DNA of 58,554 bases from Gammaproteobacteria bacterium (lineage in GTDB: Bacteria; Pseudomonadota; Gammaproteobacteria; Magnimaribacterales; D2472): assembly GCA_002721465.1 (NCBI GenBank), contig PBKO01000015.1, forward strand, positions 31,700-90,253, given 5' to 3'. Under the pieces are notes generated by a model. That model did no database searches and was not told the origin of the DNA. It worked only from the letters and a program-made list of their open reading frames with translations. The position numbers were made by a program, and so were the translations under genes. Below, one piece after another: positions 4,260-58,554 of the stretch. Positions within the stretch are counted from its first letter, which is position 1. Each line of letters begins with the position of its first letter.

Positions 4260-5319
4260 GTGAATTGGGATAATCAAAATAAAGATCCATGGGGCAATAA
4301 GAATGATGCACCTGACTTTGATGAGTTAATGAGAAAGTTTTCATCTATTCTTGGTGGTGGTAAGAAATCATCCTCAAATGGTTCAGGATCAGGTTCAGGT
4401 CCAGGAAATGGTTTTAATTTTCCTCTATCAAGAGTCTTACTCTATGGCTTCTTTGCTTTTTCAATTGTTTATGCATCTCAGTGCATATATCAGCTTGATG
4501 CTTCAGAAAGGGCAGTCATCTTAAGATTTGGTAAATTTTACGAAGAACAAGAAGAAGGTTTAAATTTTAGACTTGCTGGTATCGATGAACGTTATATTGA
4601 AAATGTTTCTTTAACAAGAAGATATACGCAAACTAATAGTATGTTAACAAAGGATGAAAATATTGTAGATGTTACTGTTTCTGCTCAATACAGGATTGCA
4701 AACTTAAAAGACTTTGTTTTAAATGTAAGAGATCCAGAAGGAAGTTTAAGAAATGCCATTGAGAGTGCTCTAAGACATGTTGTAGGAGACAATACATTAG
4801 ATCAAACACTCACAGTTGGCAGAGAAAATATAGCACAAGAGGTTCAATCAAGGCTTCAGGAATACCTTGATATTTATCAGACTGGTCTATTGGTTCAGCA
4901 AGTTAATATTGAAAAAACTGACCCGCCTGCAGCTGTAAAAAATGCTTTTGATGATGTTGTAGCAGCAAGAGAGGACAAGGAAAGACTTCAAAATGAGGCA
5001 GAAAGATATGCTTTGTCAATTGTTCCCGAAGCAAGAGGGCAGGCACAAGCAAGAATAAGAGGAGCCGAAGCATACAAAGAGGAAGTTGTAGCAAAAGCCG
5101 AAGGTGAAGTTGAAAGGTTTAATCAATTATTAGCAGAGTACTCTAAAGCACCAGAAGTAACTAGAGATAGACTATATCTTGATGCGCTTCAGTCCGTGCT
5201 TTCAAATTCTACTAAAATCATGGTTGATGTTGAGGGTGGAAATAATCTGCTTTATTTACCACTTGACAAAATAATGGAAGAAAACAAGAAACAAGAAAAT
5301 TCTAGAACCTTAAGGAGAG

Positions 5320-5333
<14 letters not shown>
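4260..5333 (+). CDS. hflK: FtsH protease modulator HflK
   Basis: GTG start with GAGG 8 nt upstream. The N-terminus is Gly/Ser-rich (DPWG..GGGKK..GSGSGSGPG), followed by one TM segment and an SPFH/band-7 domain. Confidence 0.9.
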
Positions 5334-7424
<2,091 letters not shown>

Positions 7425-12828: not shown

Positions 12829-13140
12829 ATGAATACAGATAAATTAAAGCAAAATCTTTTAAAGCTAAAAGATCTTTTCCTTGAAGAAACTGAAGAAAAT
12901 AAGAAGATGCTTGACATTTATATGAACTATCTAGAAGGGGATGCTACAGAGGATGACATTAGTAGTGCAAACAAACAATTAAAACAAATATTTAAGAGTT
13001 TGGGACTTGGTATGCTAGTAGTTCTTCCATTTAGTCCAATTTCCATTCCATATATTCTTAAAAAGGCAAAGGAATACGATATAGATCTCATACCAGACTG
13101 GTATAAAGCTTTAAGTAAAGATAAAGATAGACTAGAATAG
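12829..13140 (+). CDS. hypothetical small protein with one central hydrophobic segment
   Basis: 103-aa ORF in its own 300-bp slot between divergent nth and the thiolase gene. The N-terminus is acidic, and the segment GLGMLVVLPFSPISIPYIL is hydrophobic. No family is recognised. Confidence 0.5.
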   Translation: MNTDKLKQNLLKLKDLFLEETEENKKMLDIYMNYLEGDATEDDISSANKQLKQIFKSLGLGMLVVLPFSPISIPYILKKAKEYDIDLIPDWYKALSKDKDRLE

Positions 13141-22700: not shown

Positions 22701-22844
22701 TACTGTGATAAAAGGCAATTGAACATTTGGGGCGGCTGCTATTGGAATTTCTTGACGTGCGTATGAACCTGCAATAATGACCATTAAAGCAAGCAATAGG
22801 GTTGTCTTTGCTTTTCTTAAAGCAAAATCAATAATTTGTGTCAT
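19719..22844 (-). CDS. efflux RND transporter permease subunit (AcrB/AcrD/AcrF family)
   Basis: 1041 aa with the 12-TM plus two large periplasmic loops layout and typical N-terminal (LLLALMVIIAG) and TM4 regions. Confidence 0.9.
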   Translation of the reverse strand: MTQIIDFALRKAKTTLLLALMVIIAGSYARQEIPIAAAPNVQLPFITVSVFLDGASPNDTSRLIARPLENRLKTVTGVKNIRSTSYLSFARIFLEFEVGFDIDQALVDVKQGVEEIKYQLPLEAEDPQIEEYSEASFPVMNISIVGGQSIRQKVFYARELKDRIEPIEQILEVNMTGAPEEVLEGVINKAKMESYGVTLSDIYYSVSNNNLIIPGGKQDTGRGSFNIEVPSIIESAKDVYAIPVKVTKDAIVTLGEIATVKRTFKDFTSYARVNGQDAVTLEVSLRESANAIDASNAIRGILKDFESTLPDNLKIEVSNDDTVYANLMVKELNGNIIAAVILIMVLIIASMGIRVSMLVGLSIPFCFLMTYLILYGLNMEVNFLVMMGLLLGMGMLIDGSIVITEYADKKISEGLSRIEGYTISAKRMFFPIIASTGTTLAAFIPIMFWPGFTGQFMRYLPITIFFVLSASLFYSLIVIPVLGSYFGQKNSALNDKDTDHVSIFIRLTEWYGKYIKKFVTNPVETIIAVVSILAIIIMSYIFSGKGTIYFAIVDPVQANITIKARGNFSALETKEIIEKVEERFLEVEGIKNVYLRSGTNWWESGADRIGGGFIETLEPSQRDISGFQIMDNLVSSTKDLPGIAVEVEADLGGPSFDSPIELDIYGSTEDSVNYAVSIIENYMRNDMKGLINIFSSKAYPSVEWSVEVDKQKAAQLGVSVSDVGALVQMLTNGFKVGEYRPDDAKDEVEIRARFPESDRTITGIRDLNVVTKKGTVPVSSFINVVPKENRQTVNRKNGKYFQEVGAGTLDESKVSSKVAELDNWLKTAYLGEGISYSFGGMAEETEEVNTFMITAGITAVFIMLLMLITQFNSFYQSFIILSSVAISFVGVLLGLLITGKSFSTTMTGLSIVTLAGIVVNNNIVLIDTFNRLKEEAPHLEASKHIIEACKQRLRPIILTSLTTIFGLLPLAMGISLDIISRDILVGSRIVDWWSNLAVSIVFGLGFSTFVTLILTPAILSLPFAIKNDYKKLFKNPSNNLQ

Positions 22845-23719
22845 AAACGATTAGTAATAACTTTTTGACCATCTTCAACAAAACCCTGTCCTTGAACAAT
22901 AATTTCAATAGAATTTGAAATACCTGTTACCCATAAACCATCTTCAGAATCTTCTAGAATAATAATTTCATTAAAATTGGCTTGATTATCATTTTCAATA
23001 ACTCTTATTCCAAGCTTCCCCTCATCGTTCAATAATAAAATTGAAGGTGAAATTTTATGAGCCATTACCTTATCTATCTTAATTGTCATATTAGCTGTCA
23101 ATCCATCTTTAACAGATCCATTCTTATTTTCTATTTGAGACTCCACATTAAATGTTCTTGTTTCTGATGATGCACTTTTGGAAACAAATGTTAATTTACT
23201 TTCTATTATTTCCCCAGTCACCAGCTCAATAACCACATCTTGATTTTTTTTAACTTTATTAATCTCATACTCCGGAACCCCAGCAGTGAAAATTATTGGA
23301 TTAAGTCTAATAAGCGTTGCACAAACTTGACCTCTTTCTATAAAATTACCAGGTTTTACAATCTGCTCAATAAATCCTGAAAAGGGGGCCTTAACTTCTG
23401 TTCTGTTAAGCTCAACAATTCCCAGACTGCAAAGGACCTTATCTTTATTTACAAACTCACCCTGAATTGCTCCAATTTTTACAACTTCACCAGAGGTTTT
23501 GGCTATTACATTTATCCTTGCCTCAGATTTTGATGTAGCTTTTAATTTTATTAGTGGTTGATATTCAACAGCATTACTTAAAACTGTTTGAACAGAAAAT
23601 AATCCAGTATTATCATCTTGTTTTTCAATGCCGTCATATTTAAAAAAACCAGATATCATCCACAAAACAATAGGAATGAGGATATATAGAGATATTCTTA
23701 TGTTTTTTGTAAATTTCAT
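22841..23719 (-). CDS. efflux RND transporter periplasmic adaptor subunit (short)
   Basis: 292 aa with an N-terminal anchor and a biotinyl-lipoyl-like hairpin (GEVVKIGAIQGEFVNKDKVLCSL..VKAPFSGFI). It overlaps the RND permease start by 4 nt. Confidence 0.8.
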   Translation of the reverse strand: MKFTKNIRISLYILIPIVLWMISGFFKYDGIEKQDDNTGLFSVQTVLSNAVEYQPLIKLKATSKSEARINVIAKTSGEVVKIGAIQGEFVNKDKVLCSLGIVELNRTEVKAPFSGFIEQIVKPGNFIERGQVCATLIRLNPIIFTAGVPEYEINKVKKNQDVVIELVTGEIIESKLTFVSKSASSETRTFNVESQIENKNGSVKDGLTANMTIKIDKVMAHKISPSILLLNDEGKLGIRVIENDNQANFNEIIILEDSEDGLWVTGISNSIEIIVQGQGFVEDGQKVITNRL

Positions 23720-23739
23720 AACTTTAGATTAATTATTTG

Positions 23740-24321
23740 TTAAATCTTATATTTTTTGCGAAGTTTCTCAAACAAACTCTTGCTAAATGGTTTGCGGGCT
23801 TTATCCTTGTCTTTTGATAAATCTATTTCAAAAGATTTTTCGTTGATAAATTTGTTTTTTAATTTTACATATTCTTTTCTAAAAACATAAAAATTTTCTT
23901 TGGTATCTTTTTCATTTAAGAGATTCCAACCAGTTTTGCGTCCTGCGAAGTAAACAATTGGATGAGACCATTTAAAATTTTTTCTTGGTTGATATGACTT
24001 TCTTGCTTCAAGGTATGCTTCTTCAGGACTTGGAAAGCCATCGTTATTGATTATATTCTCACACGCTTTTGAAATATCAGTGAGTGTTGGTAAAAAAGAT
24101 TGTGAGGAAATGACATCTTCCACAGCATTTATAATTACCTCGTTATCAATATTCTTCAAACTAGTAGCCCAAATTTTTTTTCCTTCACTCAATCTTTCGT
24201 CAGTTCCGAAAACCTTATAAAACTGATAATGATAGGCTAGCTCAAGCTTAAGAAACAAAAGATCAATAGTTTTTATAAACTCTTCTTTAGTCGAATTTAA
24301 TTTCTTTTGCCCATGAATCAT
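23740..24321 (-). CDS. phage lambda replication protein P-like protein (candidate helicase loader)
   Basis: The core (aa 40-175 of the 215-aa ORF) matches, from my memory of lambda P, the pattern ..W....L...I......V.....FLP(S/T)....I..C...GFPSPEE.Y......W.H..VY.... I prefer ATG 24321, which has AAGGAAAG 6 nt upstream, over ATG 24387, which has no Shine-Dalgarno sequence. Confidence 0.62.
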   Translation of the reverse strand: MIHGQKKLNSTKEEFIKTIDLLFLKLELAYHYQFYKVFGTDERLSEGKKIWATSLKNIDNEVIINAVEDVISSQSFLPTLTDISKACENIINNDGFPSPEEAYLEARKSYQPRKNFKWSHPIVYFAGRKTGWNLLNEKDTKENFYVFRKEYVKLKNKFINEKSFEIDLSKDKDKARKPFSKSLFEKLRKKYKI

Positions 24322-25078
24322 CTTCTTTCCTTTCGTTGAATGCTTTCGAGTATTTACCTGGTTCAGAATGTTTTGTACTTTTTTCATTATTATCTATGTC
24401 TTTGTGAGTATATCTTCTTTTAACATGTTCAATGTACTTTGAATTCCATGTAGTGAATGCTGATCCATTATCTTTCCAATAAAGGATGAACTCTCTTAAA
24501 TATTTTAACGCAGAATCTTTTGATATATTTGACAACTCAAGAATATCAAATACTTCTTCACCTGGATACCATCTTTCATCAATAGAAAATGGCAAACCCT
24601 TATTAGAACTGGATTCTTTTGCCCATTCCCTTCTAATAAAATCAATAAATGTGATATTCCAATTGTTTCTTTGTTGCGCTCTTTCTATCCAATATACTTT
24701 AAATTCTTTTAACTTAATATCTAAAAAATCTTTACTAATTTTTGTCATTTCAATTATGTCTAAACTTTCTTTTGAGGGCATCCAATCTTGTGAAAGTCTA
24801 GAAAAGGTTTTATTTGATGTTGGTTTCTTAACCTCATAATTATGATTATTTTTTTTGTTCTCAAAATTAATAAATTTATATTTTACTAATTTATTAATTG
24901 ACTTAGCTAAAGAGCCTTCGTCTATAAAACTTATATGTTTTGCAAGTTGATTTGTAAGTTCACTACTTGAGGAAATTTTATTAAAATTTTCTTTTTTATA
25001 TAAATCTAGGACAATTGCGCAATGTAATCCAAGGGTTTCAGCCACTTCTGAAGAAAAAGAGAGTTTACTTTTTGACAA
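24287..25078 (-). CDS. replication-organiser-like protein: putative N-terminal wHTH plus two tandem DnaT-like / phage O-type W-x-P..YW..W repeats
   Basis: TTG start 3 nt after the DAHP synthase stop, with a GGAG upstream. Residues 99-152 and 170-223 form a clear internal duplication (DWMPSKESLDII..ISKD..EFKVYW..W and RWYPGEEVFDIL..ISKD..EFILYW..W). It lies directly upstream of the P-like gene, as O precedes P in lambda. Confidence 0.5.
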   Translation of the reverse strand: MSKSKLSFSSEVAETLGLHCAIVLDLYKKENFNKISSSSELTNQLAKHISFIDEGSLAKSINKLVKYKFINFENKKNNHNYEVKKPTSNKTFSRLSQDWMPSKESLDIIEMTKISKDFLDIKLKEFKVYWIERAQQRNNWNITFIDFIRREWAKESSSNKGLPFSIDERWYPGEEVFDILELSNISKDSALKYLREFILYWKDNGSAFTTWNSKYIEHVKRRYTHKDIDNNEKSTKHSEPGKYSKAFNERKEDDSWAKEIKFD

Positions 25079-25081
25079 TAC

Positions 25082-26131
25082 TTACCTACTCCTTCTTTCT
25101 ATAACCGCATCATTTAATTTATTTAAGCAGTTAACGGTATCTTCCCAACCCATGCACGCATCAGTGATGCTTTGCCCATATATTAAATTGTCTGATATTT
25201 TTTGATTACCTTCATTTAAATGACTTTCAATCATTATCCCCTTGATATTCTTATCACCAAGCTTTATTTGTTCTGAAATATTTTCAATTACAGGTATTTG
25301 CTGTTTAAATTTTTTCTGACTATTTCCATGACTAGCATCTATCATAATAGATTCATTTACATCTGCTTCTCTCAGAGCAGTCAGAGTAGCCTCAACAGAT
25401 TGTTGGTCATAATTTGGATTTTTTCCTCCACGTAAAATAATATGTGAGTCATGATTACCAGCTGTTTTAAGCATAGCAATATCAGCCTCTTTTGTTGCTC
25501 CCAAGAAAACATGTGAATGATTTGCAGCTTGTATTCCATCTATAGCTGCTTTAAGTCCACCATCAGTCCCATTCTTAATACCTATGGGACAGGACAAGCC
25601 TGACGCTAACTCTCTATGAATCTGACTTTCTGCAGTTCTTGCGCCAATTGCACCCCAAGATATAATATCTGTGACATATTGTGGTGAGATAGGATCTAAA
25701 AATTCAGTTCCTGCAGGAAGTTTTAGATTAGCAATTTCAATAAGAAGTTTCCTTGCCATTTCAACTCCTTTAGCTATATCGTATGTTTCATTTATATTTG
25801 GATCATTAATTAATCCTTTCCAGCCTACAGTTGTTCTAGGTTTCTCAAAATATACTCTCATAATTATGAGCAAATTTTCTTTTAATTTTGAATTTTGTTC
25901 CGTAAGTTTAGTGGCATATTCAATTGCACTTTCAGGATCGTGAATTGAACAAGGTCCAACAACAACAAAAAGACGATCATCTTTTCCATGTAAAATTTGA
26001 CTTATTTCATTTCTTGTTCCGTATACAAGTTTTGCAATTTCATCATTAATTGGAAATTTATTCACAAGCTCATAGGGAGCAGGGACCTTTCTACGATCAA
26101 TGATTCTTGTATTATCTGTCGAATAATTCAT
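25082..26131 (-). CDS. 3-deoxy-7-phosphoheptulonate (DAHP) synthase, class I (AroF/G/H type; feedback specificity not determinable)
   Basis: 349 aa with GPCSIHD, YFEKPRTTVGWKGLINDP, IGARTAESQ.HRELASG and DASHGNS motifs. Confidence 0.94.
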   Translation of the reverse strand: MNYSTDNTRIIDRRKVPAPYELVNKFPINDEIAKLVYGTRNEISQILHGKDDRLFVVVGPCSIHDPESAIEYATKLTEQNSKLKENLLIIMRVYFEKPRTTVGWKGLINDPNINETYDIAKGVEMARKLLIEIANLKLPAGTEFLDPISPQYVTDIISWGAIGARTAESQIHRELASGLSCPIGIKNGTDGGLKAAIDGIQAANHSHVFLGATKEADIAMLKTAGNHDSHIILRGGKNPNYDQQSVEATLTALREADVNESIMIDASHGNSQKKFKQQIPVIENISEQIKLGDKNIKGIMIESHLNEGNQKISDNLIYGQSITDACMGWEDTVNCLNKLNDAVIERRSR

Positions 26132-26303
26132 ATTTTAAATTTAAAATTACTAGTGGATGCTTATTATTAAATGAAAGCAAGATAATATAAACAAATTATT
26201 AAAAATTCTTACTTCAATAAAACTTGATATAAAAACATTTTTTTAAGGAAATACACAATATATTGTATTAATATATACTCAAATAACATTATGTTGTGTT
26301 TTT
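26132..26303. promoter_or_regulatory. divergent promoter region between the DAHP synthase operon (-) and scpA (+)
   Basis: This is the largest non-coding spacer in the window (172 bp) and lies between divergent starts. It is very AT-rich and contains the 12-nt perfect palindrome ACAATATATTGT (26255-26266) and TATACT (26274-26279). No -35/-10 pair could be fixed confidently. Confidence 0.4.
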
Positions 26304-27110
26304 ATGCAAAATATTAATCCTGTACAGTCAGAACTTCCGACCATCTTGGGAAAACAATTTGATAGTTTGCCAGAGGATCTCTTTATACCCCCCAATGCAT
26401 TTGAGCTTTGTCTAGAATCTTTTTCAGGCCCAATGGATCTTTTGCTATACCTTATAAGAAAAGAGAATATTAATATTTTAGATTTAAATATTTCAACTAT
26501 TACAGATCAATATCTTGAGTATATTGAGATGGTTGATTCTTTAAAATTTGAACTTGCTGCTGATTATTTAGTAATGGCAGCAACATTAGCTGAAATCAAG
26601 TCAAGATTAATGCTGCCAAAGGAGTCATCTGAAGAATATGAAGATGATCCGAGAGCTGAACTAATAAGAAGATTACAGGAATATCAAAGATATAAGTCAG
26701 TTGCTGAAAAAATTGCAACACTCCCATTGGTTGATAGAGATTTTTATATTGCATCTGCACAAATTCCTGATGTTGAACCCCTTGAAAAGAAGAAATTCAC
26801 AATCTCAGAACACGAGCTTATATCAACAATCAAAGAAGTACTTAATAGGCCAAACTATAAATCGAATCACTTAATTGATTTTGAGGAGCTCTCTACACAA
26901 GAAAGAATTCAGATAATCTTAGAATTTTTAAAAGAAAATAAAATACTTAGCTTTTCAAAAACCTTAAGAAAATCAGAGGGAAAAAAAGGAGTAGTTGTTA
27001 CCTTGCTAGCATCTCTTGAATTAGCAAAAGATGGATATATTGATCTAATTCAAAATAGAAGCGAAGAGTTATTCATTAAATCTAAAAGGAGCTCAAGTTT
27101 TGGATCTTAA
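26304..27110 (+). CDS. scpA: segregation and condensation protein A
   Basis: 268 aa. FSGPMDLLLYLIRKENINILDL..I..QY and AADYLVMAATLAEIKSRLMLP are classic ScpA motifs. Confidence 0.88.
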   Translation: MQNINPVQSELPTILGKQFDSLPEDLFIPPNAFELCLESFSGPMDLLLYLIRKENINILDLNISTITDQYLEYIEMVDSLKFELAADYLVMAATLAEIKSRLMLPKESSEEYEDDPRAELIRRLQEYQRYKSVAEKIATLPLVDRDFYIASAQIPDVEPLEKKKFTISEHELISTIKEVLNRPNYKSNHLIDFEELSTQERIQIILEFLKENKILSFSKTLRKSEGKKGVVVTLLASLELAKDGYIDLIQNRSEELFIKSKRSSSFGS

Positions 27111-27660: not shown

Positions 27661-28386
27661 ATGGCAGAAAGACTGCAAAAGTTCCTTGCAAAATCAGGAC
27701 TAGGATCAAGAAGATATTGCGAAGAGCTAATTAAATCAAAAAAAATTAAAGTTAATGGTGCTATCGCTGTAATTGGTTCATCTGTTAATAAAAAAGATAT
27801 AGTTGAGTTTGATGGAAAAATTTACAAATTCATTGATCAAGAAACACAACTCTTAATGTTAAACAAACCAGAAGGAGTTCTATCCTCAAATAAAAAAGAA
27901 AAAAACTTGCCTATTGTTTTCGATTTTTTACCGAGTAAAGATGATGATATAAGATGGATATCAATTGGCAGATTAGATATCAATACTTCAGGATTAATGC
28001 TTTTTACAAATGATGGTAAATTTGCAAACTTTTGTATGCACCCCTCATCACTAATTGATAGAGAATACCTCGTCAGAGCTAGAGGTGAATTTAATCAAGA
28101 GATTAAAGAAAAAATGCTTGAGGGTATTAATATAGAAGGCCATAAATATAAATTGTCAGACATTGTAGAAGGTGAAAAAATATCTTCAAATCAATGGTTT
28201 TCAGTTTGTCTAATGACTGGAAGAAATAAAGAAGTAAGAAAAATCTTCAATGAAATGGGCCTTGAGGTTAGCAGATTAAAAAGAACTAGATTTGGACCAA
28301 TATTTATGCCATCGAGCTTAAAGAAAGGTCAGTATTTAAATTTGTCAAATAAAGAAATTGAATCACTCAAGCATTATGGAACATAA
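27661..28386 (+). CDS. rluB: 23S rRNA pseudouridine synthase (RluB/RsuA family)
   Basis: ERLQKFLAKSGLGSRR S4 domain and the GRLDINTSGLMLFTNDG catalytic Asp motif. It follows scpAB as in Pseudomonas-type genomes. Confidence 0.86.
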   Translation: MAERLQKFLAKSGLGSRRYCEELIKSKKIKVNGAIAVIGSSVNKKDIVEFDGKIYKFIDQETQLLMLNKPEGVLSSNKKEKNLPIVFDFLPSKDDDIRWISIGRLDINTSGLMLFTNDGKFANFCMHPSSLIDREYLVRARGEFNQEIKEKMLEGINIEGHKYKLSDIVEGEKISSNQWFSVCLMTGRNKEVRKIFNEMGLEVSRLKRTRFGPIFMPSSLKKGQYLNLSNKEIESLKHYGT

Positions 28387-28987
28387 AAAGGCTTTTGATT
28401 TTCTTATAAAAAAATCGTTAAGCATGAATTTTAAAGAACTTGCCAAACATATAAAAAAAGTTGGCCCTCTAAAAATAAAAACATCAAATATGAAATTTGT
28501 TGATCATCTAGTAAAAATAATTGTTGGACAACAACTTTCAGTCAAATCAGCTGCTGCAATATGGGAAAGAACTGAAAAAATACTTAATGAAAGTAATTAT
28601 AAAAAACCAAACGATAGTTTGAATAAAAAATTTAAGTCTGCTGGATTATCTAGACAAAAAATTGAATATTTAAATGGAATTATTTTTAATCATGAATTAA
28701 TAGATATGAAAAAAAAAGATCTAATAAAAATGAACTATAACCAGTATTATGATTTTTTAATTAAGCTAAAAGGAATAGGTCCGTGGTCCATAGAAATGTC
28801 ACGTATTTTTTATGTTGGTGACCCAGATATATTCTCAATTCTTGACTTGGGATTAAAAAATGCCCATTTAAAAATATTTGATTTGAAAACATATAACCAA
28901 ATTTTTTATCAAGAATTCAGTCCATACCGAAGTTACATGTGCTTATTTCTGTGGAGAATTCTCGAAGATGAAAACGTTACTATTTAA
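28376..28987 (+). CDS. DNA-3-methyladenine glycosylase II-like HhH-GPD family protein
   Basis: IVGQQLS.KSAAAIW, LKGIGPWSIEM (HhH) and ILDLGLK (catalytic Asp region) are present. The start is ambiguous (28358, 28376 or 28424). Confidence 0.72.
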   Translation: MEHKKAFDFLIKKSLSMNFKELAKHIKKVGPLKIKTSNMKFVDHLVKIIVGQQLSVKSAAAIWERTEKILNESNYKKPNDSLNKKFKSAGLSRQKIEYLNGIIFNHELIDMKKKDLIKMNYNQYYDFLIKLKGIGPWSIEMSRIFYVGDPDIFSILDLGLKNAHLKIFDLKTYNQIFYQEFSPYRSYMCLFLWRILEDENVTI

Positions 28988-47639: not shown

Positions 47640-47713
47640 GGCTGGATGGCAGAGTGGTTATGCAGCGGCCTGCAAAGCCGTTTACGCCGGTTCGATTCCG
47701 GCTTCAGCCTCCA
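47640..47713 (+). tRNA. cysT: tRNA-Cys (anticodon GCA), CCA encoded
   Basis: GGCTGGA acceptor pairs with TTCAGCC (one G-U pair). The anticodon loop is CT-GCA-AA and the T arm is GCCGG-TTCGATT-CCGGC. It is 74 nt long and close to E. coli tRNA-Cys. Confidence 0.92.
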
Positions 47714-47720
47714 TAAAAAT

Positions 47721-48680
47721 ATGAAAATATTAGTAACAGGTGCAGCAGGGTTTATAGGATCTCACTTATGCAAGAAACTTCTTGATCTTGATCATGACGT
47801 ATTTGGAATAGATAATTTAAATAATTACTATGATGTTAGTTTTAAATTATTAAGACTAGACAGATTAAATTCGAGTAGATTTAGTTTCAATGAAATTGAT
47901 ATTTCAGATAATGAGAAATTACTTCCATATATATCAAATATTAAACCTAACCTTATTATTAATCTTGCAGCACAAGCAGGGGTGAGATACTCATTGGAAA
48001 ATCCAAAGGCTTACTTTGATTCAAATATTGTTGGTTTTGGAAACATATTAGAATCAGCCAGAATAAATAATGTAAAAAAAATTATTTATGCATCTAGTAG
48101 TTCAGTTTATGGAAATTCAAAAGAAATTCCTTTTTGTGAAACTTTAAAAGGTTTGAGTCCAATTTCTCTTTATGCTGCATCTAAATTTTCAAATGAATTA
48201 ATTGCAAAAAGCTATTCATACAATTTTGGAATTAGTTTGATTGGACTAAGGTTTTTTACAGTTTATGGTGAATATGGTAGACCAGATATGGCATATTATA
48301 GCTTTACTGAAAAGATAAAGAATGATGAACAAATCACTATTTATAATAAAGGAAAAATGTCTAGGGATATGACTTTTATTGATGACATTATAGATGGTAT
48401 AAATAGATCTATTATTTACATCAATGATAATGAAAATATTGATAACGAAATATTTAATCTAGGCAATAATAATCCTGTCTCTGTATGGGACCTCGTAAAC
48501 TATATAAGTAATTTCTTAAATAAAGATGTTAATTATACCTATATGGATTTAAATACAGAGGTTGATATCACTTATGCAAATATAGAAAAGGCAAAAGAAT
48601 ATCTTGGATGGATACCAAAAACAACTTTTGAGGATGGTATGAATAAATTTTTGTCATGGCACTCTAGGAAAAAACAATAA
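47721..48680 (+). CDS. NAD-dependent nucleotide-sugar epimerase, UDP-glucuronate 4-epimerase-like
   Basis: MKILVTGAAGFIGSHL, the NLNNYYDVSFKLLRL pattern of the UDP-GlcA 4-epimerase group, and YAASKFSNE (YxxxK) are present. The ORF-track start at 47646 lies inside tRNA-Cys and is rejected. Confidence 0.85.
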   Translation: MKILVTGAAGFIGSHLCKKLLDLDHDVFGIDNLNNYYDVSFKLLRLDRLNSSRFSFNEIDISDNEKLLPYISNIKPNLIINLAAQAGVRYSLENPKAYFDSNIVGFGNILESARINNVKKIIYASSSSVYGNSKEIPFCETLKGLSPISLYAASKFSNELIAKSYSYNFGISLIGLRFFTVYGEYGRPDMAYYSFTEKIKNDEQITIYNKGKMSRDMTFIDDIIDGINRSIIYINDNENIDNEIFNLGNNNPVSVWDLVNYISNFLNKDVNYTYMDLNTEVDITYANIEKAKEYLGWIPKTTFEDGMNKFLSWHSRKKQ

Positions 48681-49990
48681 TGAAGATTACGGTAGTTGGC
48701 ACAGGATATGTTGGATTAGTATCTGGTGTATGCATGTCTGAAATAGGCCACAATGTTACATGCCTCGATATTAATAGAAATGTTATTAATAAATTAAGAA
48801 AAGGCAAAGTCCCTTACTATGAACCTAAATTAGAGAAGATGATTCTAAGAAATATTAAAAAAAATAATTTGTCTTTTTCAAATTCGTATAAAAACTCAAC
48901 TCAGGAAGTAAATATATTTTTTATTTGTGTTGGCACCCCAGAAAATAACGATGGAAGTTCAAATTTAAAATATGTATATGATGTTGCTAAAAGTCTAGCT
49001 AAAAATATTTCAGAAGATGCAATTGTTTTTATTAAATCCACCGTACCTGTTGGAACAAATGCCTTAATTCAAAAATTAATTAATGAAAATAAAAAAAATA
49101 ATATTAATATTATGGTTGCATCAAATCCAGAATTTTTAAAGGAAGGAGATGCTGTTAATGATTTTTTGAATCCAGATAGAGTAATTGTTGGAACTTCTAG
49201 CAAAGATGTGATGAGTGTTGTAAAAAAAATATATGAACCATTAAAGATCAAAAACGAAAAGATTGTTTTCATGCCAATTAAAGCTGCAGAATTGACAAAA
49301 TATGCAGCTAACTCATTTCTAGCAACAAAAATAAGTTTCATTAACGAGCTATCTATACTGTCTGACGCTTTAAACATTAATATTGAGCATATTAAAAGGG
49401 GTATTGGAAGTGACCCTAGAATAGGTGATAAGTTTCTAAATGCAGGTTTAGGTTTTGGAGGTTCGTGTTTTCCAAAAGATATAGCTTCTTTAATTAATAT
49501 CTATGAACAAAAGAATCTGGAATCTAACTTATTAAGATCTGTAAGAGAGGTTAATAAAAACCAAAGAATAAACTTTATGAAGAAAATTCTTTCACATTTT
49601 AAAAATTCAAAATTGACTAATAAAAAATTAATGATTTGGGGTCTCTCTTTTAAACCTGAGACTGACGATATTAGAGAGTCAATAAGTATAAAATTAATTA
49701 AAGACCTAGCTAAAAAAGTAAAAAAATTATATGTTTATGATCCAATTGCAATTAAAAATTCACAAAAAGAACTAAACAGATTCAATAATATAGATTTCTT
49801 AAAATCACAGTATTCAAATATTAGTGAATGTGATGCTTTAATAGTTTGCACAGAATGGGAGATTTTCAAAAATCCAGATATGGCAAAGCTTAAGAAACTT
49901 AAATCTAAAGTGGTGTTTGATGGAAGAAATTGTCTAAATAAAGAAAAAATTCTTCAAAACAATATAAAATATATAGGAGTAAGTAAATAA
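48680..49990 (+). CDS. ugd: UDP-glucose 6-dehydrogenase
   Basis: MKITVVGTGYVGLV, NPEFLKEG and the GFGGSCFPKD catalytic Cys motif are present. Confidence 0.93.
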   Translation: MKITVVGTGYVGLVSGVCMSEIGHNVTCLDINRNVINKLRKGKVPYYEPKLEKMILRNIKKNNLSFSNSYKNSTQEVNIFFICVGTPENNDGSSNLKYVYDVAKSLAKNISEDAIVFIKSTVPVGTNALIQKLINENKKNNINIMVASNPEFLKEGDAVNDFLNPDRVIVGTSSKDVMSVVKKIYEPLKIKNEKIVFMPIKAAELTKYAANSFLATKISFINELSILSDALNINIEHIKRGIGSDPRIGDKFLNAGLGFGGSCFPKDIASLINIYEQKNLESNLLRSVREVNKNQRINFMKKILSHFKNSKLTNKKLMIWGLSFKPETDDIRESISIKLIKDLAKKVKKLYVYDPIAIKNSQKELNRFNNIDFLKSQYSNISECDALIVCTEWEIFKNPDMAKLKKLKSKVVFDGRNCLNKEKILQNNIKYIGVSK

Positions 49991-49992
49991 AT

Positions 49993-50079
49993 GCCCGGGT
50001 GGTGGAATTGGTAGACACAAGGGACTTAAAATCCCTCGCTAGAAATAGCGTGCCGGTTCAAGTCCGGCTCCGGGTACCA
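49993..50079 (+). tRNA. leuZ: tRNA-Leu (anticodon TAA), CCA encoded, long variable arm
   Basis: GCCCGGGTGGTGGAATTGGTAGACACAAGGGACTTAAAATCCC.. is nearly identical in its 5' half to E. coli leuZ as I remember it. The T arm is GCCGG-TTCAAGT-CCGGC. It is 87 nt long. Confidence 0.92.
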
Positions 50080-50089
50080 GATTGTTATT

Positions 50090-50977
50090 ATGGATAAAAT
50101 TGAGAACTATATTGAGGTATTTCAGAATCGTTTTAAAACACTTTTATTAATTGGCATTGTTTCAGCTTTATTTTGTATTGTTTTTTTAAATACTGTTACA
50201 CCTAAATATACAGCTTTTATGAAAATTGGCCCTGTTGACTCTAATGAGACAACGAGTAATTCTAATGGATTGGGCGCTGCAGCTGGATTAATTGGTTTAA
50301 ATTTAGGTGGCTCTGAATCAGCTTCAAGTTATTTAGTTTTTCAGGAAACAATAAGCTCAACTAGATTAGCTAATCGCCTTATTGAAAAAAATGATCCTAG
50401 AAAAGTATTCTTTGGAAGCATGTATGACGAAAAAAATGATATTTTTGCTCGACCAAATGGTTTTGTAAATCGGATCAAAAATATTATTAAAAATATTTTA
50501 GGCTACCCTGATTGGTCTGAGCCTGTAGCATCGAACATTTCAACAATTATTGAAAACAGTGTCATAAAAACCTCTAATTTAGATAATAATTTTGTTACTT
50601 ATTATTTTGAATTTGAAGATAAAGATTTTGCAATTTCTTTTTTAAAAGATATATATGAAGAAACTGAATCTTTAATAAAGGAACAGCAAAAAATGATTGC
50701 ATCTGAAAAAAAACAATATTATTTAGATGCATTGAAAGATGTTACAAGCGATACTCACAGAAAGATTATCTCGTCTCAAATTATTGAGCAAGAGAGGATG
50801 TTATCAAAAACTGGTATTTCTACCCCAATTTCAGCAATGCTTATAGATGATATTGACGCTTATCCACAACAAACTTATCCAAAAAGAATCCAAAGCATGT
50901 TCTTTTTCGTCATCGTCGGCTTTCTGTTTGGATATATTTATTTTGTCATTCGAGATATCTTCTTAATTAACAAATAG
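50090..50977 (+). CDS. polysaccharide co-polymerase / chain-length determinant (Wzz-like, PCP-1)
   Basis: 295 aa with an N-terminal TM segment followed by ..TPKYTAFMKI (Wzz N-motif). The middle region is predicted helical. A Pro-containing YPQQTYPKR segment comes immediately before a C-terminal TM segment. Confidence 0.66.
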   Translation: MDKIENYIEVFQNRFKTLLLIGIVSALFCIVFLNTVTPKYTAFMKIGPVDSNETTSNSNGLGAAAGLIGLNLGGSESASSYLVFQETISSTRLANRLIEKNDPRKVFFGSMYDEKNDIFARPNGFVNRIKNIIKNILGYPDWSEPVASNISTIIENSVIKTSNLDNNFVTYYFEFEDKDFAISFLKDIYEETESLIKEQQKMIASEKKQYYLDALKDVTSDTHRKIISSQIIEQERMLSKTGISTPISAMLIDDIDAYPQQTYPKRIQSMFFFVIVGFLFGYIYFVIRDIFLINK

Positions 50978-50984
50978 GCACTAA

Positions 50985-52556
50985 ATGTTTTTAAAAAGTG
51001 ATGATTTTTTAGATCTCACATCAACAAATCAAGAAAATTTAGATGTAATCCTGAGTGCTGACGAATTTAATTTGAAAGGAATCCGCACACAATCCTATAA
51101 GACAAGAATCATTGAAGAATTTAACAATTCTTTTGATAACTTCTTATTATTTGTTTCAAGAAAATATAATTTAGAAAAAGATTTGAGACTTCAAAATTTT
51201 ATGAAGCCTTGGTGGCTCCAGGCAGTTTTATTAAAATTAGACAGAGAAGACTTTTGTCATGCATTGTTACAAAAGGGTGTTAAAAACTTTATTTGTGAAA
51301 AAAAAATTGACCTTCAGCCATTTTTAAATCATACAGATATTAAAGATAAGATTGGCAATGATAAACATTTCAATGATTTTTTGATTGCATTAATTCTAAA
51401 AAAACATGGAATAAAATTTTCATGCAGCAATTCTTCAAAAAATTACGGTTTTATAAAAACTGTATTTAAAAAAACTTTCATAGAAAGGCTTAAATCTATA
51501 CTGCAGAATTTAATGCTCAAATATGTATCAATTTGTTCAAAAATATTTGGTAAAAACTTTGAAATAGTAACTGATACTTCAAATTATTCTAGAAAAGAAA
51601 TCATTTTTGGAACAATAAAATGCAAATTACTTCCTTTAATTGATTTAAACGATATTTTCTCATCAGACACTCATGAAATAACAGAGTTTAACTTTGATGA
51701 AATAAATTTTGATGAGTTTCTCTATAATATGTTTGTATCAAATAATCTTATAAAAAATTTCAATAAGTACAAGATTAATAATACAAACGTTTCATTAGCA
51801 AAATCTTACAAGGGCTTTATCAATAATTTGAATACGAGATCTTTCATTACTGCACGTTTAAAAGACATGAATAAAGTTAAATTATATCCTCATGGAGGCC
51901 TGACAAATGCAATCTGGACAGAAGAAAAATTATCAACTGAGTTGTCAGGAGCAAAATTTCAAAACATTAGAATAAATAAAGATGAAAAAAAGTATTTCGT
52001 AAATACTAATAGTCAAAATGTAAAATTTGACATACTTGTAACATTATTTGGCCATACAAAATATGTTTCTAGGTTTAGATCTGGAATGACTCACCATGAG
52101 TATATTACTGAATATATTAAAGGCATGGAGCATTTTTTGACTAATCTTAATAAGGATAAATATAAAGTAAAACTAAGGTTTCCATCAGACAATAGATTTA
52201 ATAAGAAAATAATTGATAAATACAGTAGCTTAGGTTTCGAATTTGATACAAATAAAAGTATCAATAAATCTTTATCAGAAACAAGAATTCATATCCCTAC
52301 CTACAATGCTACTTTGCCTCTATATTCAATTATTAACAATATTCCCTCAATATTCTTTTGGAATGACAATCATTTTCCTTTACCAAGTATATTTGAGAAC
52401 ATTCTTACAGAATTAAAAAGTAAAAATTTATTATTTAATCATTCCAAAGAATTGGTTAATTATTTAAATGAAGTTACAGCTAGTGAAATAAAAGAAAATT
52501 GGAATACTAATAATGATCTCATAAAAGGCTTTGGGTCTTTAATTGTCAATAATTAA
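50985..52556 (+). CDS. hypothetical protein (orphan; possible novel sugar transferase)
   Basis: 523-aa uninterrupted ORF in a very AT-rich stretch, with no TM segment and no motif of a known GT fold that I can see. It lies between the wzz-like gene and a cytidylyltransferase gene. Confidence 0.5.
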   Translation: MFLKSDDFLDLTSTNQENLDVILSADEFNLKGIRTQSYKTRIIEEFNNSFDNFLLFVSRKYNLEKDLRLQNFMKPWWLQAVLLKLDREDFCHALLQKGVKNFICEKKIDLQPFLNHTDIKDKIGNDKHFNDFLIALILKKHGIKFSCSNSSKNYGFIKTVFKKTFIERLKSILQNLMLKYVSICSKIFGKNFEIVTDTSNYSRKEIIFGTIKCKLLPLIDLNDIFSSDTHEITEFNFDEINFDEFLYNMFVSNNLIKNFNKYKINNTNVSLAKSYKGFINNLNTRSFITARLKDMNKVKLYPHGGLTNAIWTEEKLSTELSGAKFQNIRINKDEKKYFVNTNSQNVKFDILVTLFGHTKYVSRFRSGMTHHEYITEYIKGMEHFLTNLNKDKYKVKLRFPSDNRFNKKIIDKYSSLGFEFDTNKSINKSLSETRIHIPTYNATLPLYSIINNIPSIFFWNDNHFPLPSIFENILTELKSKNLLFNHSKELVNYLNEVTASEIKENWNTNNDLIKGFGSLIVNN

Positions 52557-52611
52557 ACAATATCCATTTTAAAGATGAAATGCTAAAATCATTAGTATAT
52601 AGGGCTCCAGA

Positions 52612-53331
52612 ATGATATCTAATAAAAATGTTTTAGCAATAACTCTTGCAAGAGGAGGGTCAAAATCTATATACAAAAAAAATATTGCTTTACTTAAAAA
52701 TAAACCATTAATAAGTTACACAATAAATGCTGCTTTAGATTCTAAATATATCGATGAATATATTATTTCGACTGATGATAAAGAAATTGCAGATGTTGCA
52801 GAAAATCTCGGCGCTACTATTCCTTTTCTGAGACCAGAAAATCTATCAAGTGATACGGCTTCAAGTGCAGATGCTCTTATTCATGCTGTAAATGCATACG
52901 AAGAAATAACAAAGAAAAAATATGATTACATTATTGAGTTAATGTGCACAAATCCGTTTAAATCTGGTGAGATGATTGATGATATTATTTCTAAGCTTGA
53001 TAGAAATGAAAAAGCAGATGCAGTAATTACTGTTGAGAGACTATTAGATCATCATCCAGCAAGAATAAAAAAAATAGAAAATGGATATATAAGAGACTTC
53101 TGTGTTGAGGAAGAGCTCGAATCAAGAAGACAAGATTTAAAACCAGAAGCATATATCAGAAATGGGAACATATATGCTTTGAGGAGAGATTTATTGATGA
53201 TTCAAAAAGCTCGATATGGAACAAATTTTTGTATTCCTTATTACAAAGAAGATATACCTTCAGCAAATATTGATGAACCTTCAGATTTTTATAAAGCTGA
53301 ATCCCTTTTGAATGATTGGGATCAAAAATGA
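52612..53331 (+). CDS. acylneuraminate (CMP-nonulosonate/ulosonate) cytidylyltransferase family protein
   Basis: AITLARGGSKSIYKKNI, the LRPENLSSDTASS pattern and RRQDL..Y.RNG of the CTP_transf_3 (NeuA/KdsB-like) family are present. Confidence 0.84.
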   Translation: MISNKNVLAITLARGGSKSIYKKNIALLKNKPLISYTINAALDSKYIDEYIISTDDKEIADVAENLGATIPFLRPENLSSDTASSADALIHAVNAYEEITKKKYDYIIELMCTNPFKSGEMIDDIISKLDRNEKADAVITVERLLDHHPARIKKIENGYIRDFCVEEELESRRQDLKPEAYIRNGNIYALRRDLLMIQKARYGTNFCIPYYKEDIPSANIDEPSDFYKAESLLNDWDQK

Positions 53332-54293
53332 AGAAAAATATTTTACTCATAACACCTATAAAGCATATTCCTAGAGTTTTTGATTTGCTTGAAAAAAGTT
53401 TTAATGTTTATTACTTTCCTGATTTTAAATATAAAGATTTAGTTAAACTCAAAAATGTTAATTTCTATGCAATTTATACTAACCCAAATAAGTCAAGAGT
53501 AAGAATTGATAAGAAAATTATTGATGCATTGCTCGATCTAAAATATGTTGTAACAGCTTCAACAGGAACCAATCACATTGAAAAGAAATTACTAAAACAA
53601 AAAAAAATTAAATTAATTTCACTTACTAGAGATCTAAAAACAATTAAGAGAATAAGCTCTACTGCAGAACTTGCATTCGCTCTTACACTTAATGCTATAA
53701 GAAATATTGATGAAGCATCTAGATCGGTCAGAAATGGAGGGTGGGATTATTTACCCTTCGTGGGAAGGCAGATGAATAAATTAAATATTTTAATTGTTGG
53801 ATTTGGAAGGCTTGGCAAGATGTACTATAAGTATGCAAAATCATTTGGATCAACAATAAAAGTTTGTGACCCTTATGTTCAAACAAATACAAATAATAGT
53901 AATGTTTGCTTTGTTGATTTGATTGAAGGAGTTAAAGATGCAGATATAATTTCTTTACATATCCATCATACCAAGGAAACAGAAAAAATAATTAACAAAA
54001 AAATTCTAAAACGCTGTAAGGATAATGTGACTATTATCAATACTTCAAGAGGTGAGATTGTAGATGAGGATGATGTTGTTGATTTTTTAAGATCCAATAA
54101 GTCTTCCAAGTATTACACTGATGTGATCTCTGACGAAATTAGATCAAAATCTAAAAATATTCTTTTAAAAGAAAATACTAAAAATACAAATATATTTATT
54201 ACGCCTCATATTGGAGGCATGACATTGGATGCTCAACAAATCGCCTTTGAAAGAGTTGCAACTAAATTAATTAATACTTTGAAAAATGAATAA
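53328..54293 (+). CDS. D-isomer-specific 2-hydroxyacid dehydrogenase family protein
   Basis: The IVGFGRLGK NAD-binding motif, NTSRGEIVDE and TPHIGG catalytic His motif are present. ATG 53328 forms an ATGA overlap with the preceding stop. Confidence 0.8.
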   Translation: MKKNILLITPIKHIPRVFDLLEKSFNVYYFPDFKYKDLVKLKNVNFYAIYTNPNKSRVRIDKKIIDALLDLKYVVTASTGTNHIEKKLLKQKKIKLISLTRDLKTIKRISSTAELAFALTLNAIRNIDEASRSVRNGGWDYLPFVGRQMNKLNILIVGFGRLGKMYYKYAKSFGSTIKVCDPYVQTNTNNSNVCFVDLIEGVKDADIISLHIHHTKETEKIINKKILKRCKDNVTIINTSRGEIVDEDDVVDFLRSNKSSKYYTDVISDEIRSKSKNILLKENTKNTNIFITPHIGGMTLDAQQIAFERVATKLINTLKNE

Positions 54294-55326
54294 AAAAATA
54301 ATTGTTACTGGTGGAGCTGGATTTATAGGAGCCAATCTTACAAACATGGCTTTGTCAAAGGGTTACAAAGTGCTTGTTATGGACAAGTTAACATATGCTG
54401 GAAACAGAAAATCTTTAAATCTTAAAGATAAAAATTTAATTTTTAAAAAAATTGATATCTGTAATAAAGCTTTAGTTTATAAAACAATAAAGGATTTTAA
54501 ACCAAACTTTATATATCATCTTGCGGCCGAGTCACATGTTGATAGATCAATCGATTCACCTGACTTGTTTATAAAAACAAATGTATTAGGCACTTTTAAT
54601 ATTATTGAATGCATTAGAGAACTTTCAAGAAATAAATCTTTCAAGAAAATTTTTCAAAGACTAGTGCATGTTTCAACTGACGAAGTTTATGGTACCGCAA
54701 CTTTAAAAAAACCTTTCACAATTAATACGCCCTATAATCCATCATCACCTTATTCGTCTTCAAAGGCATCGAGTGATCACTTAGTAAAAGCTTGGTGTAA
54801 AACTTATGACCTGCCTTTTGTCGTAACGAATTGTTCTAATAATTATGGGCCATATCAATTTCCAGAGAAATTGATTCCACATATCATACTTAGAACTATT
54901 AAAAGAAAAAAATTACCAATCTATGGAGATGGACTGCAAAAGAGAGACTGGATTCATGTAACCAATCATGTTGAAGGGCTCTTAAAAGCTGGTGAAAGAG
55001 GTATAAATGGAGCTACTTATTTATTTGGTACTGCTAAAGCAACAACAAACCTTAGTTTAGTAAAAATTATTTGCAGTGAAATTGATAAAAAAACAAATAA
55101 AAATAACTCTTTTCAACTAGTCAGTCATGTTAAAGATAGACCCGCCCATGATAGACTTTACTTAATTGATCCATCCAAAAGTATAAAAGATTTAAATTGG
55201 AAACCAGATTTGAAACTTAAAGAAAACATTTCTCAAACAATCGATTGGTATTTAGATAATACAGATTGGTTGAAGTCAATCACAAAGTCATCAAGTTATA
55301 ATTTATCAAGGTTAGGCAATAAATAA
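54286..55326 (+). CDS. rfbB: dTDP-glucose 4,6-dehydratase
   Basis: IIVTGGAGFIGAN, HLAAESHVDRSI, STDEVYG and YSSSKASSDHL are present. Confidence 0.93.
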   Translation: MNKKIIVTGGAGFIGANLTNMALSKGYKVLVMDKLTYAGNRKSLNLKDKNLIFKKIDICNKALVYKTIKDFKPNFIYHLAAESHVDRSIDSPDLFIKTNVLGTFNIIECIRELSRNKSFKKIFQRLVHVSTDEVYGTATLKKPFTINTPYNPSSPYSSSKASSDHLVKAWCKTYDLPFVVTNCSNNYGPYQFPEKLIPHIILRTIKRKKLPIYGDGLQKRDWIHVTNHVEGLLKAGERGINGATYLFGTAKATTNLSLVKIICSEIDKKTNKNNSFQLVSHVKDRPAHDRLYLIDPSKSIKDLNWKPDLKLKENISQTIDWYLDNTDWLKSITKSSSYNLSRLGNK

Positions 55327-56207
55327 TGAATGTTAAAGGGATTCTTTTGGCAGGTGGTCATGGGACTAGACTCTGGCCAATGACCAAGCTGGTAAGCAAA
55401 CAAATGCTTAACATATATGACAAGCCAATGATTTATTATCCTTTGTCTTCATTGATTTTGGCAGGAATCAGAGATATTTGCATAGTAAGTCAAAATGAAA
55501 ATATCCAAATATATAAAAATTTTTTTGGAGATGGCAATCAACTGGGATTAAACATATCTTATCAAGCACAAAACGACCCTAAAGGTATTCCAGATGCAAT
55601 CAATATAAATAAAAATTTTATTGGAAAATCTTCAGTAGTTTTAGCGCTTGGTGATAATATATTTTATGGACGCGATTTTGAAGAACAGTTGAAAGATGGA
55701 ATTAAATCTCTTAATGAGAAAATAGCAAGCGTCCTTATTCACAAAGTGAGTAATCCTTCTGATTTTGGAGTTGCAAAAATTTCAGATAATAAAATAGTTG
55801 AGTTAATTGAGAAACCTAAAAAATTTGTATCAAATCATGCTGTCACCGGACTTTATTTCTTACCAAATGATTGTATTAATTTTACGATAGATCTCAAACC
55901 CTCAGATCGTGGAGAACTTGAGATAACCGACTTACTAAATTTTTATCTTAAAGAGAGTAGATTACGTCATATTTTTACTGGCCGAGGTACTTTTTGGACT
56001 GATTCTGGTAGCGTAGGTTCGCTCAATGATGCTTCAAATTTTGTAAGAGCTATTCAAAATTCACAAGGTCTTGTGATATGTGCACCTGAAGAGATTGCTT
56101 TATATAAAAATTTCATATCTAAAGGACAATTTAAAAAATTAATCGAGAATTACAGTTCTGAATATGCTGAAAAATTAAAAAATACGATTGATTACAATGA
56201 AAGTTAA
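55326..56207 (+). CDS. rfbA: glucose-1-phosphate thymidylyltransferase
   Basis: KGILLAGGHGTRLWPMT, KQMLNIYDKPMIYYPLS, LGDNIFYG and EITD motifs are present. Confidence 0.93.
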   Translation: MNVKGILLAGGHGTRLWPMTKLVSKQMLNIYDKPMIYYPLSSLILAGIRDICIVSQNENIQIYKNFFGDGNQLGLNISYQAQNDPKGIPDAININKNFIGKSSVVLALGDNIFYGRDFEEQLKDGIKSLNEKIASVLIHKVSNPSDFGVAKISDNKIVELIEKPKKFVSNHAVTGLYFLPNDCINFTIDLKPSDRGELEITDLLNFYLKESRLRHIFTGRGTFWTDSGSVGSLNDASNFVRAIQNSQGLVICAPEEIALYKNFISKGQFKKLIENYSSEYAEKLKNTIDYNES

Positions 56208-56254
56208 ATTGAAAAGATTCAACAAGATAAGACGAAATTTTTAAATAAAACTTT

Positions 56255-58511: not shown

Positions 58512-58554
58512 GAAATATTCAATAAATAAACTATGCTAAATATTTATAAGTACC

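Follow-up and report, generated by a model that had tools for sequence, protein, structure and literature searches.

Among the bacteria of the surface ocean, SAR86 is one of the most abundant lineages. How it loads its replicative helicase is a question raised by a gene pair in a stretch of 58,554 nucleotides (nt) from Gammaproteobacteria bacterium, a member of the SAR86 clade (contig PBKO01000015.1 of assembly GCA_002721465.1, positions 31,700 to 90,253), hereafter termed the window. A first-pass annotation of the sequence had read this pair, at 23740 to 25078, as a lambda O/P-like replication module of the dopC/dopE type embedded in a housekeeping operon. We propose that it is the SAR86 version of DopC/DopE (DopCE), a resident and vertically inherited pair originating from a phage replication module, which probably loads the replicative helicase. 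The pair and its flanks comprise the following features (dopC and dopE from the list of open reading frames, ORFs; the Shine-Dalgarno motif from the sequence):

24287 to 25078, minus strand: dopC, 263 residues, TTG start, stop codon included
23740 to 24387, minus strand: dopE, 215 residues, ATG at 24387, stop codon included
25082 to 26131, minus strand: DAHP synthase (aroG-type) gene, directly upstream of dopC
22841 to 23719, minus strand: RND adaptor gene, directly downstream of dopE
25089 to 25094, minus strand: Shine-Dalgarno motif AAGGAG of dopC, within the final aroG codons

The spacings of the co-oriented ORFs are exactly as first described: the aroG stop is followed after 3 nt by the TTG at 25078, and the dopE stop at 23740 lies 20 nt from the RND adaptor start at 23719. 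The same-strand run containing them is real and reaches from position 26131 to dxs at 16743. In addition, the dopC and dopE ORFs overlap by 101 nt, a point that the first-pass annotation left unmentioned.

DopE is a P-like protein

The distal ORF had been recognised as replication protein P-like, and profile comparisons bear this out. DopE matches PHROG 109 "P-like helicase loader" (1.7e-15), and a profile of 27 DopE sequences aligns with lambda P with an hhalign E-value of 6.6e-4. Against Pfam PF06992 (Phage_lambda_P), the orthologues from a deep SAR86-related locus (L068, 35.9 bits) and from Halioglobus (36.3 bits) score above the family cutoff, and the majority of the close SAR86 homologues carry a precomputed PF06992 match. 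The motifs SFLPTLTDISKAC, GFPSPEEAY and KWSHPIVYF are all present in DopE, and those quoted for lambda P (RPFLPSPGQFVAWC, GLP and YPW..HYW) are truly found in lambda P; hhalign pairs the motifs of both (FLPS/FLPT, GLP/GFP and YPW/KWSHP). Two elements of DopE are located as follows:

23851 to 24270, minus strand: DopE core matching Phage_lambda_P, residues 40-179 against profile positions 2-152 (Pfam)
23743 to 23790, minus strand: conserved C-terminal helix of DopE, with invariant L205, L209, R210 and K212

An alignment of 14 sequences is collinear from lambda P through the P-like proteins of Pseudomonas and Marinomonas phages to SAR86, including the N-terminal segment and the C-terminal helix. 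Five columns are invariant from lambda P to SAR86 (F45, W73, P100, C109 and P119). DopE possesses the same layout as lambda P, namely an N-terminal segment, a P-like core, a variable linker with an entropy peak at residues 188-198, and a conserved C-terminal helix, which is basic and amphipathic and aligns with residues 211-232 of lambda P. Residues 64-123 also resemble the N-terminal domain of G39P weakly, below significance (Pfam 0.02; PDB 1NO1, 0.021).

DopC combines a putative phage-derived N-terminus with two DnaT domains

DopC contains two tandem DnaT DNA-binding domains (PF17948, E=1.9e-32; Pfam cutoff 25 bits), which score far above chance and account for the tandem repeats noticed earlier at nt 24410-24784. 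Its domains are arranged as follows:

24869 to 25078, minus strand: N-terminal helical, helix-turn-helix (HTH)-like domain, residues 1-70 (AlphaFold2)
24602 to 24799, minus strand: DnaT repeat 1, residues 94-159, the best PF17948 stretch
24392 to 24589, minus strand: DnaT repeat 2, residues ~164-229, the second PF17948 stretch

The AlphaFold2 model of DopC has a mean predicted local distance difference test (pLDDT) score of 73. Structural similarity search using Foldseek revealed that its top PDB match is the complex of DnaT84-153 with single-stranded DNA (ssDNA) (4OU6), with a probability of 0.99 and a target template-modelling (TM) score of 0.64. A profile search of the PDB also matched residues 164-214 to DnaT, with marginal E-values at the sequence level (0.05-0.4).

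The N-terminal domain is predicted to consist of four helices (residues 10-16, 18-29, 38-48 and 54-66; pLDDT about 80), with a conserved motif A13-x-T15-L16...A21. Residues 1-70 match the winged-helix domains of Fur/Zur proteins weakly, at a Foldseek probability of 0.14-0.33. Over its first 86 residues, Halioglobus DopC shares 34-37% identity (E about 1e-4) with the N-terminal ends of two phage proteins. The first is encoded at the O position of a Klebsiella phage and, like lambda O, has a Phg_2220_C C-terminus; the second, from a Geobacillus phage, is a DnaD-type initiator whose gene directly precedes those of a G39P-like loader and a helicase. The SAR86 DopC profile is collinear with the N-terminus of the Klebsiella protein (hhalign E=0.0019), and a tblastn search with SAR86 DopC retrieved none of 50,697 phage records, the longer Halioglobus DopC being needed to reach the phage initiators. 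The N-terminal domain thus probably derives from a phage initiator, for SAR86 on weak scores; such an origin is also stated in the available text of the 2017 DopCE paper (PMC5509034).

The winged-helix and O-like readings of the proximal ORF therefore stand only in part. The former agrees weakly with the Foldseek and hhalign values above; the latter fits the position of the gene and, weakly, its N-terminal domain, but no PF04492, no C-terminal domain of the lambda O type and no iterons were found. Pfam searches matched DopC to neither PF04492 nor PF09524/Phg_2220_C, and DopC falls outside the lambda O family. Neither DopC nor DopE contains an AAA+ (IstB/DnaC) or a DciA/DUF721 domain in Pfam and NCBIfam searches with E-values up to 1.

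The SAR86 pair is orthologous to DopC/DopE

DopE was described by Brezellec et al. in 2017 as the product of a domesticated lambda P gene; the companion gene dopC, upstream of it, was said to encode an HTH N-terminus and, in place of the C-terminus of lambda O, a DnaT C-terminal motif (PMC5509034). As presented in the available text, DopCE was proposed as a third helicase "matchmaker" and described from Cellvibrionales and some Oceanospirillales (PMC5509034), in lineages reported to lack both dciA and dnaC (PMC5509034; PMC5109545, supplement). The SAR86 pair shares with it the gene order, a lambda-P-like DopE, a DopC with HTH-like and DnaT parts, a chromosomal non-prophage context and, for SAR86 by the repeat search of 22800-26400, the absence of iterons, so far as these are given there (PMC5509034).

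An exhaustive DopE profile search yielded 550 clusters (50% identity) at E-values up to 0.001. Outside SAR86, the nearest clusters belong to Pseudohongiellaceae, OM182, Porticoccaceae, Cellvibrionales UBA7375, Pseudomonadales and Halioglobus. In terms of families, the closest chromosomal genes come from Porticoccaceae, Halieaceae, OM182 and Pseudohongiellaceae, from which DopC/DopE was first reported. By BLASTP, the window DopE is 27-36% identical to the proteins of Porticoccaceae, Halioglobus, OM182 and Pseudohongiellaceae (E 1e-26 to 1e-39), compared to 22-26% (E about 1e-11) for the best P-like proteins of phages. A neighbour-joining tree, which is a distance tree and contains none of the genomes named in the 2017 paper, places SAR86 DopE as sister to a Cellvibrionales-type clade, with phage P outside. 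A pattern-based scan of IMG/VR viral contigs, which has limited sensitivity, revealed no relative with the conserved DopE motifs.

In three Cellvibrionales-type genomes, the gene upstream of dopE encodes a DopC that shares with that of SAR86 the N-terminal motif, the DnaT repeats and the C-terminal ...D-x-SWA tail, and the SAR86 DopC profile aligns with Halioglobus DopC with an hhalign E-value of 1.5e-32. Based on these shared features, the Halioglobus match and the affiliation of DopE in the tree and BLASTP comparisons, sequence comparison identifies the SAR86 pair as a DopC/DopE orthologue and not a new system. The "dopC/dopE type" first suggested for it is thus apt: the architecture fits the published one, and the closest relatives are chromosomal Cellvibrionales-type homologues, not phage P. 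DopCE itself has been known since 2017, and the present finding extends it to SAR86, which is not among the genome sets listed in the available parts of the published sources (PMC5509034; PMC5109545, supplement). No paper naming SAR86 together with dciA was found in the literature searched. What seems to be new is a DopC with two repeats, a different genomic context and a long out-of-frame overlap.

The SAR86 and Cellvibrionales-type pairs differ in several respects. Halioglobus and LSUCC0057 DopC have three DnaT repeats and about 375 residues, whereas SAR86 DopC has two repeats, corresponding to repeats 2 and 3 of those proteins, and 257-269 residues, being about 110 residues shorter. Identity to the relatives is only 27-36% for DopE and 25-32% for DopC. 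The SAR86 order aroG-dopCE-RND contrasts with radA-dopCE-aceK in two relatives and with a dopE convergent with dnaB in Halioglobus. In the Halioglobus-type contig (L076, 6001-8093), dopE and dnaB lie tail-to-tail, 15 nt apart, in an rpsF-rpsR-rplI-dnaB cluster; as guilt by association, this hints at a link of DopE to the replicative helicase. In the three Cellvibrionales-type loci (L076, L077 and L078), radA is located upstream of dopC, within about 0.1-1.4 kb. The Halioglobus dopC (L076, 4854-6089, plus strand) is uncalled in the source annotation, which lists instead a 190-residue minus-strand gene without Pfam match. A similar missed dopC annotation is reported for Congregibacter in the 2017 paper, as far as its available text shows (PMC5509034).

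The pair is resident across SAR86

A scan of one genome per GTDB species yielded 71 loci, most of them from the SAR86 cluster and the others from unclassified Gammaproteobacteria metagenome-assembled genomes (MAGs). Identity to the window proteins is 53-67% at most loci, 99% in one single-amplified genome, and 38-42% in four deeper MAGs (L068 to L071) where the genes are complete. The order rluB-scpB-scpA | aroG-dopC-dopE-RND adaptor-RND pump-ispA-dxs is identical in the 71 loci wherever the contigs reach, and dopC orthologues are present in every SAR86 locus whose contig reaches the gene. In two loci (L021 and L059, ~5300-6100), the dopC frame seems interrupted or shortened at its 5' end, with tblastn matches starting at residue 94 or 141. 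Faulty assembly and a true truncation are both conceivable; dopE is intact in the two loci.

Nei-Gojobori (NG86) estimates over 89 pairs with unsaturated dS gave a median ratio of nonsynonymous to synonymous substitution rates (dN/dS) of 0.175 for dopC and 0.129 for dopE (range 0.04-0.34). Synteny and purifying selection, which the first-pass annotation had proposed to examine, are therefore both found, across 71 SAR86 species representatives and at a dN/dS of 0.13-0.18. No integrase, repressor, structural or lysis gene lies nearby, as had been noted: Pfam searches of the window and of a syntenic 20-kb relative recorded housekeeping genes only. Nor are there att-like repeats near the pair or iteron-like direct repeats in 22800-26400, where only short AT-rich chance matches occur, and the closest tRNA gene is 23 kb off. 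The pair consists of resident chromosomal genes that are vertically inherited in SAR86.

The pair persists, in shortened form, under extreme genome streamlining, and its survival argues for an essential role. Membership of SAR86 widens a putative third bacterial loader system beyond the orders of its first description. Moreover, the alignment of dozens of SAR86 species pinpoints candidate interaction elements: the C-terminal helix of DopE, the SWA tail of DopC and the overlap.

A long conserved overlap joins dopC and dopE

The overlap of the two genes is a dual-coding segment:

24287 to 24387, minus strand: 101-nt dual-coding overlap, encoding the C-terminal tail of DopC and, in the +1 frame, residues 1-33 of DopE

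The DopC tail encoded here has the pattern EPGKY..F..RK.D.SWA.EI. The overlap measures 101 nt, or 98 nt in five cases, in all 62 SAR86 loci with both genes complete. It is also long in Halioglobus (89 nt, L076 6001-6089), LSUCC0057 (86 nt, L078 5953-6038) and a Porticoccaceae contig (86-95 nt, L077 5992-6086), and these three share the SWA tail with SAR86. By contrast, O and P overlap by merely 1-8 nt in lambda and in two inspected phage O/P pairs. The main text of the 2017 paper, in its available form, does not mention the overlap (PMC5509034).

Entropy at third codon positions is 0.64-0.77 within the overlap compared to 1.2-1.45 elsewhere, a drop that matches the expectation for dual coding. 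The DopC frame is the better conserved across it, with invariant E239, G241, F247, R250, D253, W256 and A257, compared to K2 and G26 in the DopE frame; the "SWA" of DopC and the "xGQ" of DopE share the same nucleotides. Since the N-terminus of DopE aligns with that of lambda P, the simplest reading of the sequences is that the DopC tail arose after domestication, when dopC was extended across the beginning of dopE. With dopE in the +1 frame, a programmed +1 frameshift giving a DopC-DopE fusion is formally possible; evidence for such a fusion is lacking, and no search aimed at it was made.

The ATG of dopE equivalent to 24387 is kept in every locus holding the 5' end of the gene, usually right after an in-frame stop. 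An internal ATG at 24321 (M23), from which many gene callers derive a product of 193 residues, was rejected as the dopE start, being GTG or absent in many species. The start of dopC is TTG in about 50 of 62 loci and ATG in some clades, and a GGAG, GAGG or AGGA motif lies at -18 to -4 in 52 of 66 loci; the dopE ATG is preceded by a Shine-Dalgarno-type motif in just 4 of 68. A dopC TTG with a good Shine-Dalgarno motif, together with a dopE ATG that lacks one and lies 101 nt inside dopC, suggests that dopE expression is coupled to dopC, and it is probably low.

Proposed mechanism and alternative explanations

In lambda P, the C-terminal "lasso" helix (211-232) binds the DH-LH site of DnaB and probably engages first, and a pentameric clamp, to which the N-terminal lasso and the central domains also contribute, opens the DnaB ring (PMC12661323). 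DopE keeps this layout, so that it would be expected to bind the DnaB hexamer as lambda P does and to open the ring, and its C-terminal helix may be the counterpart of the DnaB-binding element. DopC would act as an adaptor: its two DnaT-type domains would bind ssDNA at the unwound oriC, at stalled forks or at both, while its HTH-like N-terminus and C-terminal ...D-x-SWA tail could serve as tethers, with DNA or DnaA on one side and DopE or DnaB on the other. The complex of DopE and DnaB would thereby be brought to the loading site. Both proteins would be translated from the aroG...dxs same-strand run. A bolder version, possible but in our view rather doubtful, holds that DopCE is the sole replicative-helicase loader of SAR86 and, jointly, that the overlap of 86-101 nt is a functional device throughout the family, in which the tail overprinted on the N-terminal codons of DopE holds DopC to DopE or DnaB and the overlap forces the two proteins to be made together at a fixed ratio.

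Several observations weigh against helicase loading by the pair. The window DopE itself scores 23.6 bits against PF06992 (E=4.8e-5), under the 26-bit cutoff. A search of PDB sequences with a profile of the DopE alignment retrieved only SPP1 G39P (E=0.021) and not lambda P, and the AlphaFold2 model of DopE, built from a 24-sequence alignment, is unusable (pLDDT 41). The similarity of DopC to lambda O is not significant (hhalign E=0.43). The absence of dciA, dnaC and dnaI, as judged by Pfam, has its basis in the 58-kb window alone. No experimental test of helicase loading by any DopE was found in the literature, where later papers cite DopE just as a loader family. Finally, the DnaT domains suit replication restart at least as well as initiation.

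This last point leads to the alternative that the pair is a replication-restart module, consisting of a DnaT-like primosome adaptor and a loader that act like E. coli dnaT-dnaC with PriA, whereas another factor or none loads DnaB at oriC. The only strong domains of DopC are indeed DnaT ssDNA-binding domains, and the succession of a DnaT-domain gene and a loader gene reproduces the order in E. coli, where dnaT is followed by dnaC. The proximity of radA to dopC in the Cellvibrionales-type loci also fits restart, and fork reactivation is raised in the available text of the 2017 paper itself (PMC5509034). However, one loader serves both pathways in E. coli, so that a role in restart does not exclude one in helicase loading at oriC, and DopCE lineages are reported to be without any other loader in the accessible parts of the sources (PMC5509034; PMC5109545, supplement). 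A module confined to restart therefore appears unlikely to us.

A role in phage exclusion, in which the P-like protein sequesters or guards DnaB and a canonical loader does the housekeeping, is much less probable still. It would accord with a dopE start that lacks a Shine-Dalgarno motif, compatible with low expression, and with the ability of lambda P to out-compete DnaC for DnaB; an anti-phage advantage is speculated upon by the 2017 authors in the available text (PMC5509034). Defence genes, however, are normally patchy and located in variable islands, whereas this pair is universal in the sampled SAR86 representatives and syntenic between aroG and the RND pump. The same synteny, together with the selection data, makes an inert or decaying prophage remnant, a cryptic lambdoid replication module without function in the cell, so improbable that we regard it as excluded. 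The phage ancestry of both domains speaks for a remnant, but nearly all of the 71 species representatives have the two ORFs intact in the same place (dopC seems disrupted in two of them), and the genes evolve under the purifying selection documented above, lack phage neighbours and, in the pattern-based scan, have no IMG/VR relative with the conserved motifs. Loading of the replicative helicase by a domesticated pair thus remains the explanation that we favour.

Comparison with other initiator-loader modules

The phage lambda O/P pair and the pairs of Pseudomonas and Marinomonas phages likewise have an initiator or organiser gene ahead of the loader gene. DopE aligns collinearly with lambda P, both termini included, and its best phage matches are annotated as P-like helicase loaders; it is nonetheless only 12-26% identical to phage P proteins. 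The companions differ more: phage O has PF04492 and, in lambda, the ori iterons, whereas DopC has neither and carries DnaT domains instead.

E. coli DnaT-DnaC resembles the pair in that the gene of a DnaT-type ssDNA-binding protein directly precedes that of a phage-derived DnaB loader, and the DopC model superposes on the DnaT84-153-ssDNA structure. Compared to DnaC, however, DopE is not an AAA+ protein, and no ATPase domain was found in it. DnaT has a single C-terminal domain and a DnaT-specific N-terminus, whereas DopC has two tandem domains and an unrelated N-terminus.

Modules of the SPP1 G38P/G39P type, such as that of Geobacillus phage NIIg9.7 (initiator, G39P-like loader and helicase), also place the initiator before the loader. 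The similarities of DopE 64-123 to G39P, which is weak, and of the Halioglobus DopC N-terminus to the Geobacillus phage initiator point in the same direction. The DopE similarity nevertheless falls under the significance thresholds, and the Geobacillus initiator has DnaD/DnaB_2 rather than DnaT domains. VdhL1 and VdhL2 of Vibrionaceae are phage-derived loaders that replace dciA and have an O-like companion and a remote PF06992 similarity (PMC11087808). By description they form a separate family of sporadic and horizontal distribution, as opposed to the clade-wide, syntenic SAR86 pair.

Other features of the window

The Pfam scan of neighbours covered the substantial ORFs of the window (65 of at least 100 residues were listed, minus short nested ones on the opposite strand). 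The housekeeping genes recorded include gyrA, pntAB, and riboflavin, aromatic amino acid and lipopolysaccharide (LPS) genes. The sign of the GC skew tracks the gene strand within the window and is thus uninformative about the origin, and promoter and terminator scans performed no better than on shuffled sequence. Downstream of rluB, a plus-strand ORF of 209 residues (28358-28987) has a SAR86 counterpart of 203 residues (L073, 5325-5936) without a recorded Pfam family. A plus-strand ORF of 103 residues (12829-13140) has no Pfam match at E-values up to 1e-5.

The distal part of the window contains the following features:

47640 to 47713: tRNA-Cys
49993 to 50079: tRNA-Leu
47646 to 48680, plus strand: ORF of an epimerase/dehydratase gene
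50090 to 50977 and 50985 to 52556: two sizeable ORFs of the polysaccharide cluster without Pfam match at E-values up to 1e-5

From tRNA-Cys onwards and around tRNA-Leu (47640-58554), the GC content is lower (26-31%) and the genes form a cluster for sugar-nucleotide and polysaccharide biosynthesis, which looks like a typical variable surface-polysaccharide island. The listed start of the epimerase/dehydratase ORF falls within tRNA-Cys, its Pfam match begins at about residue 26, and the true start probably lies further downstream.

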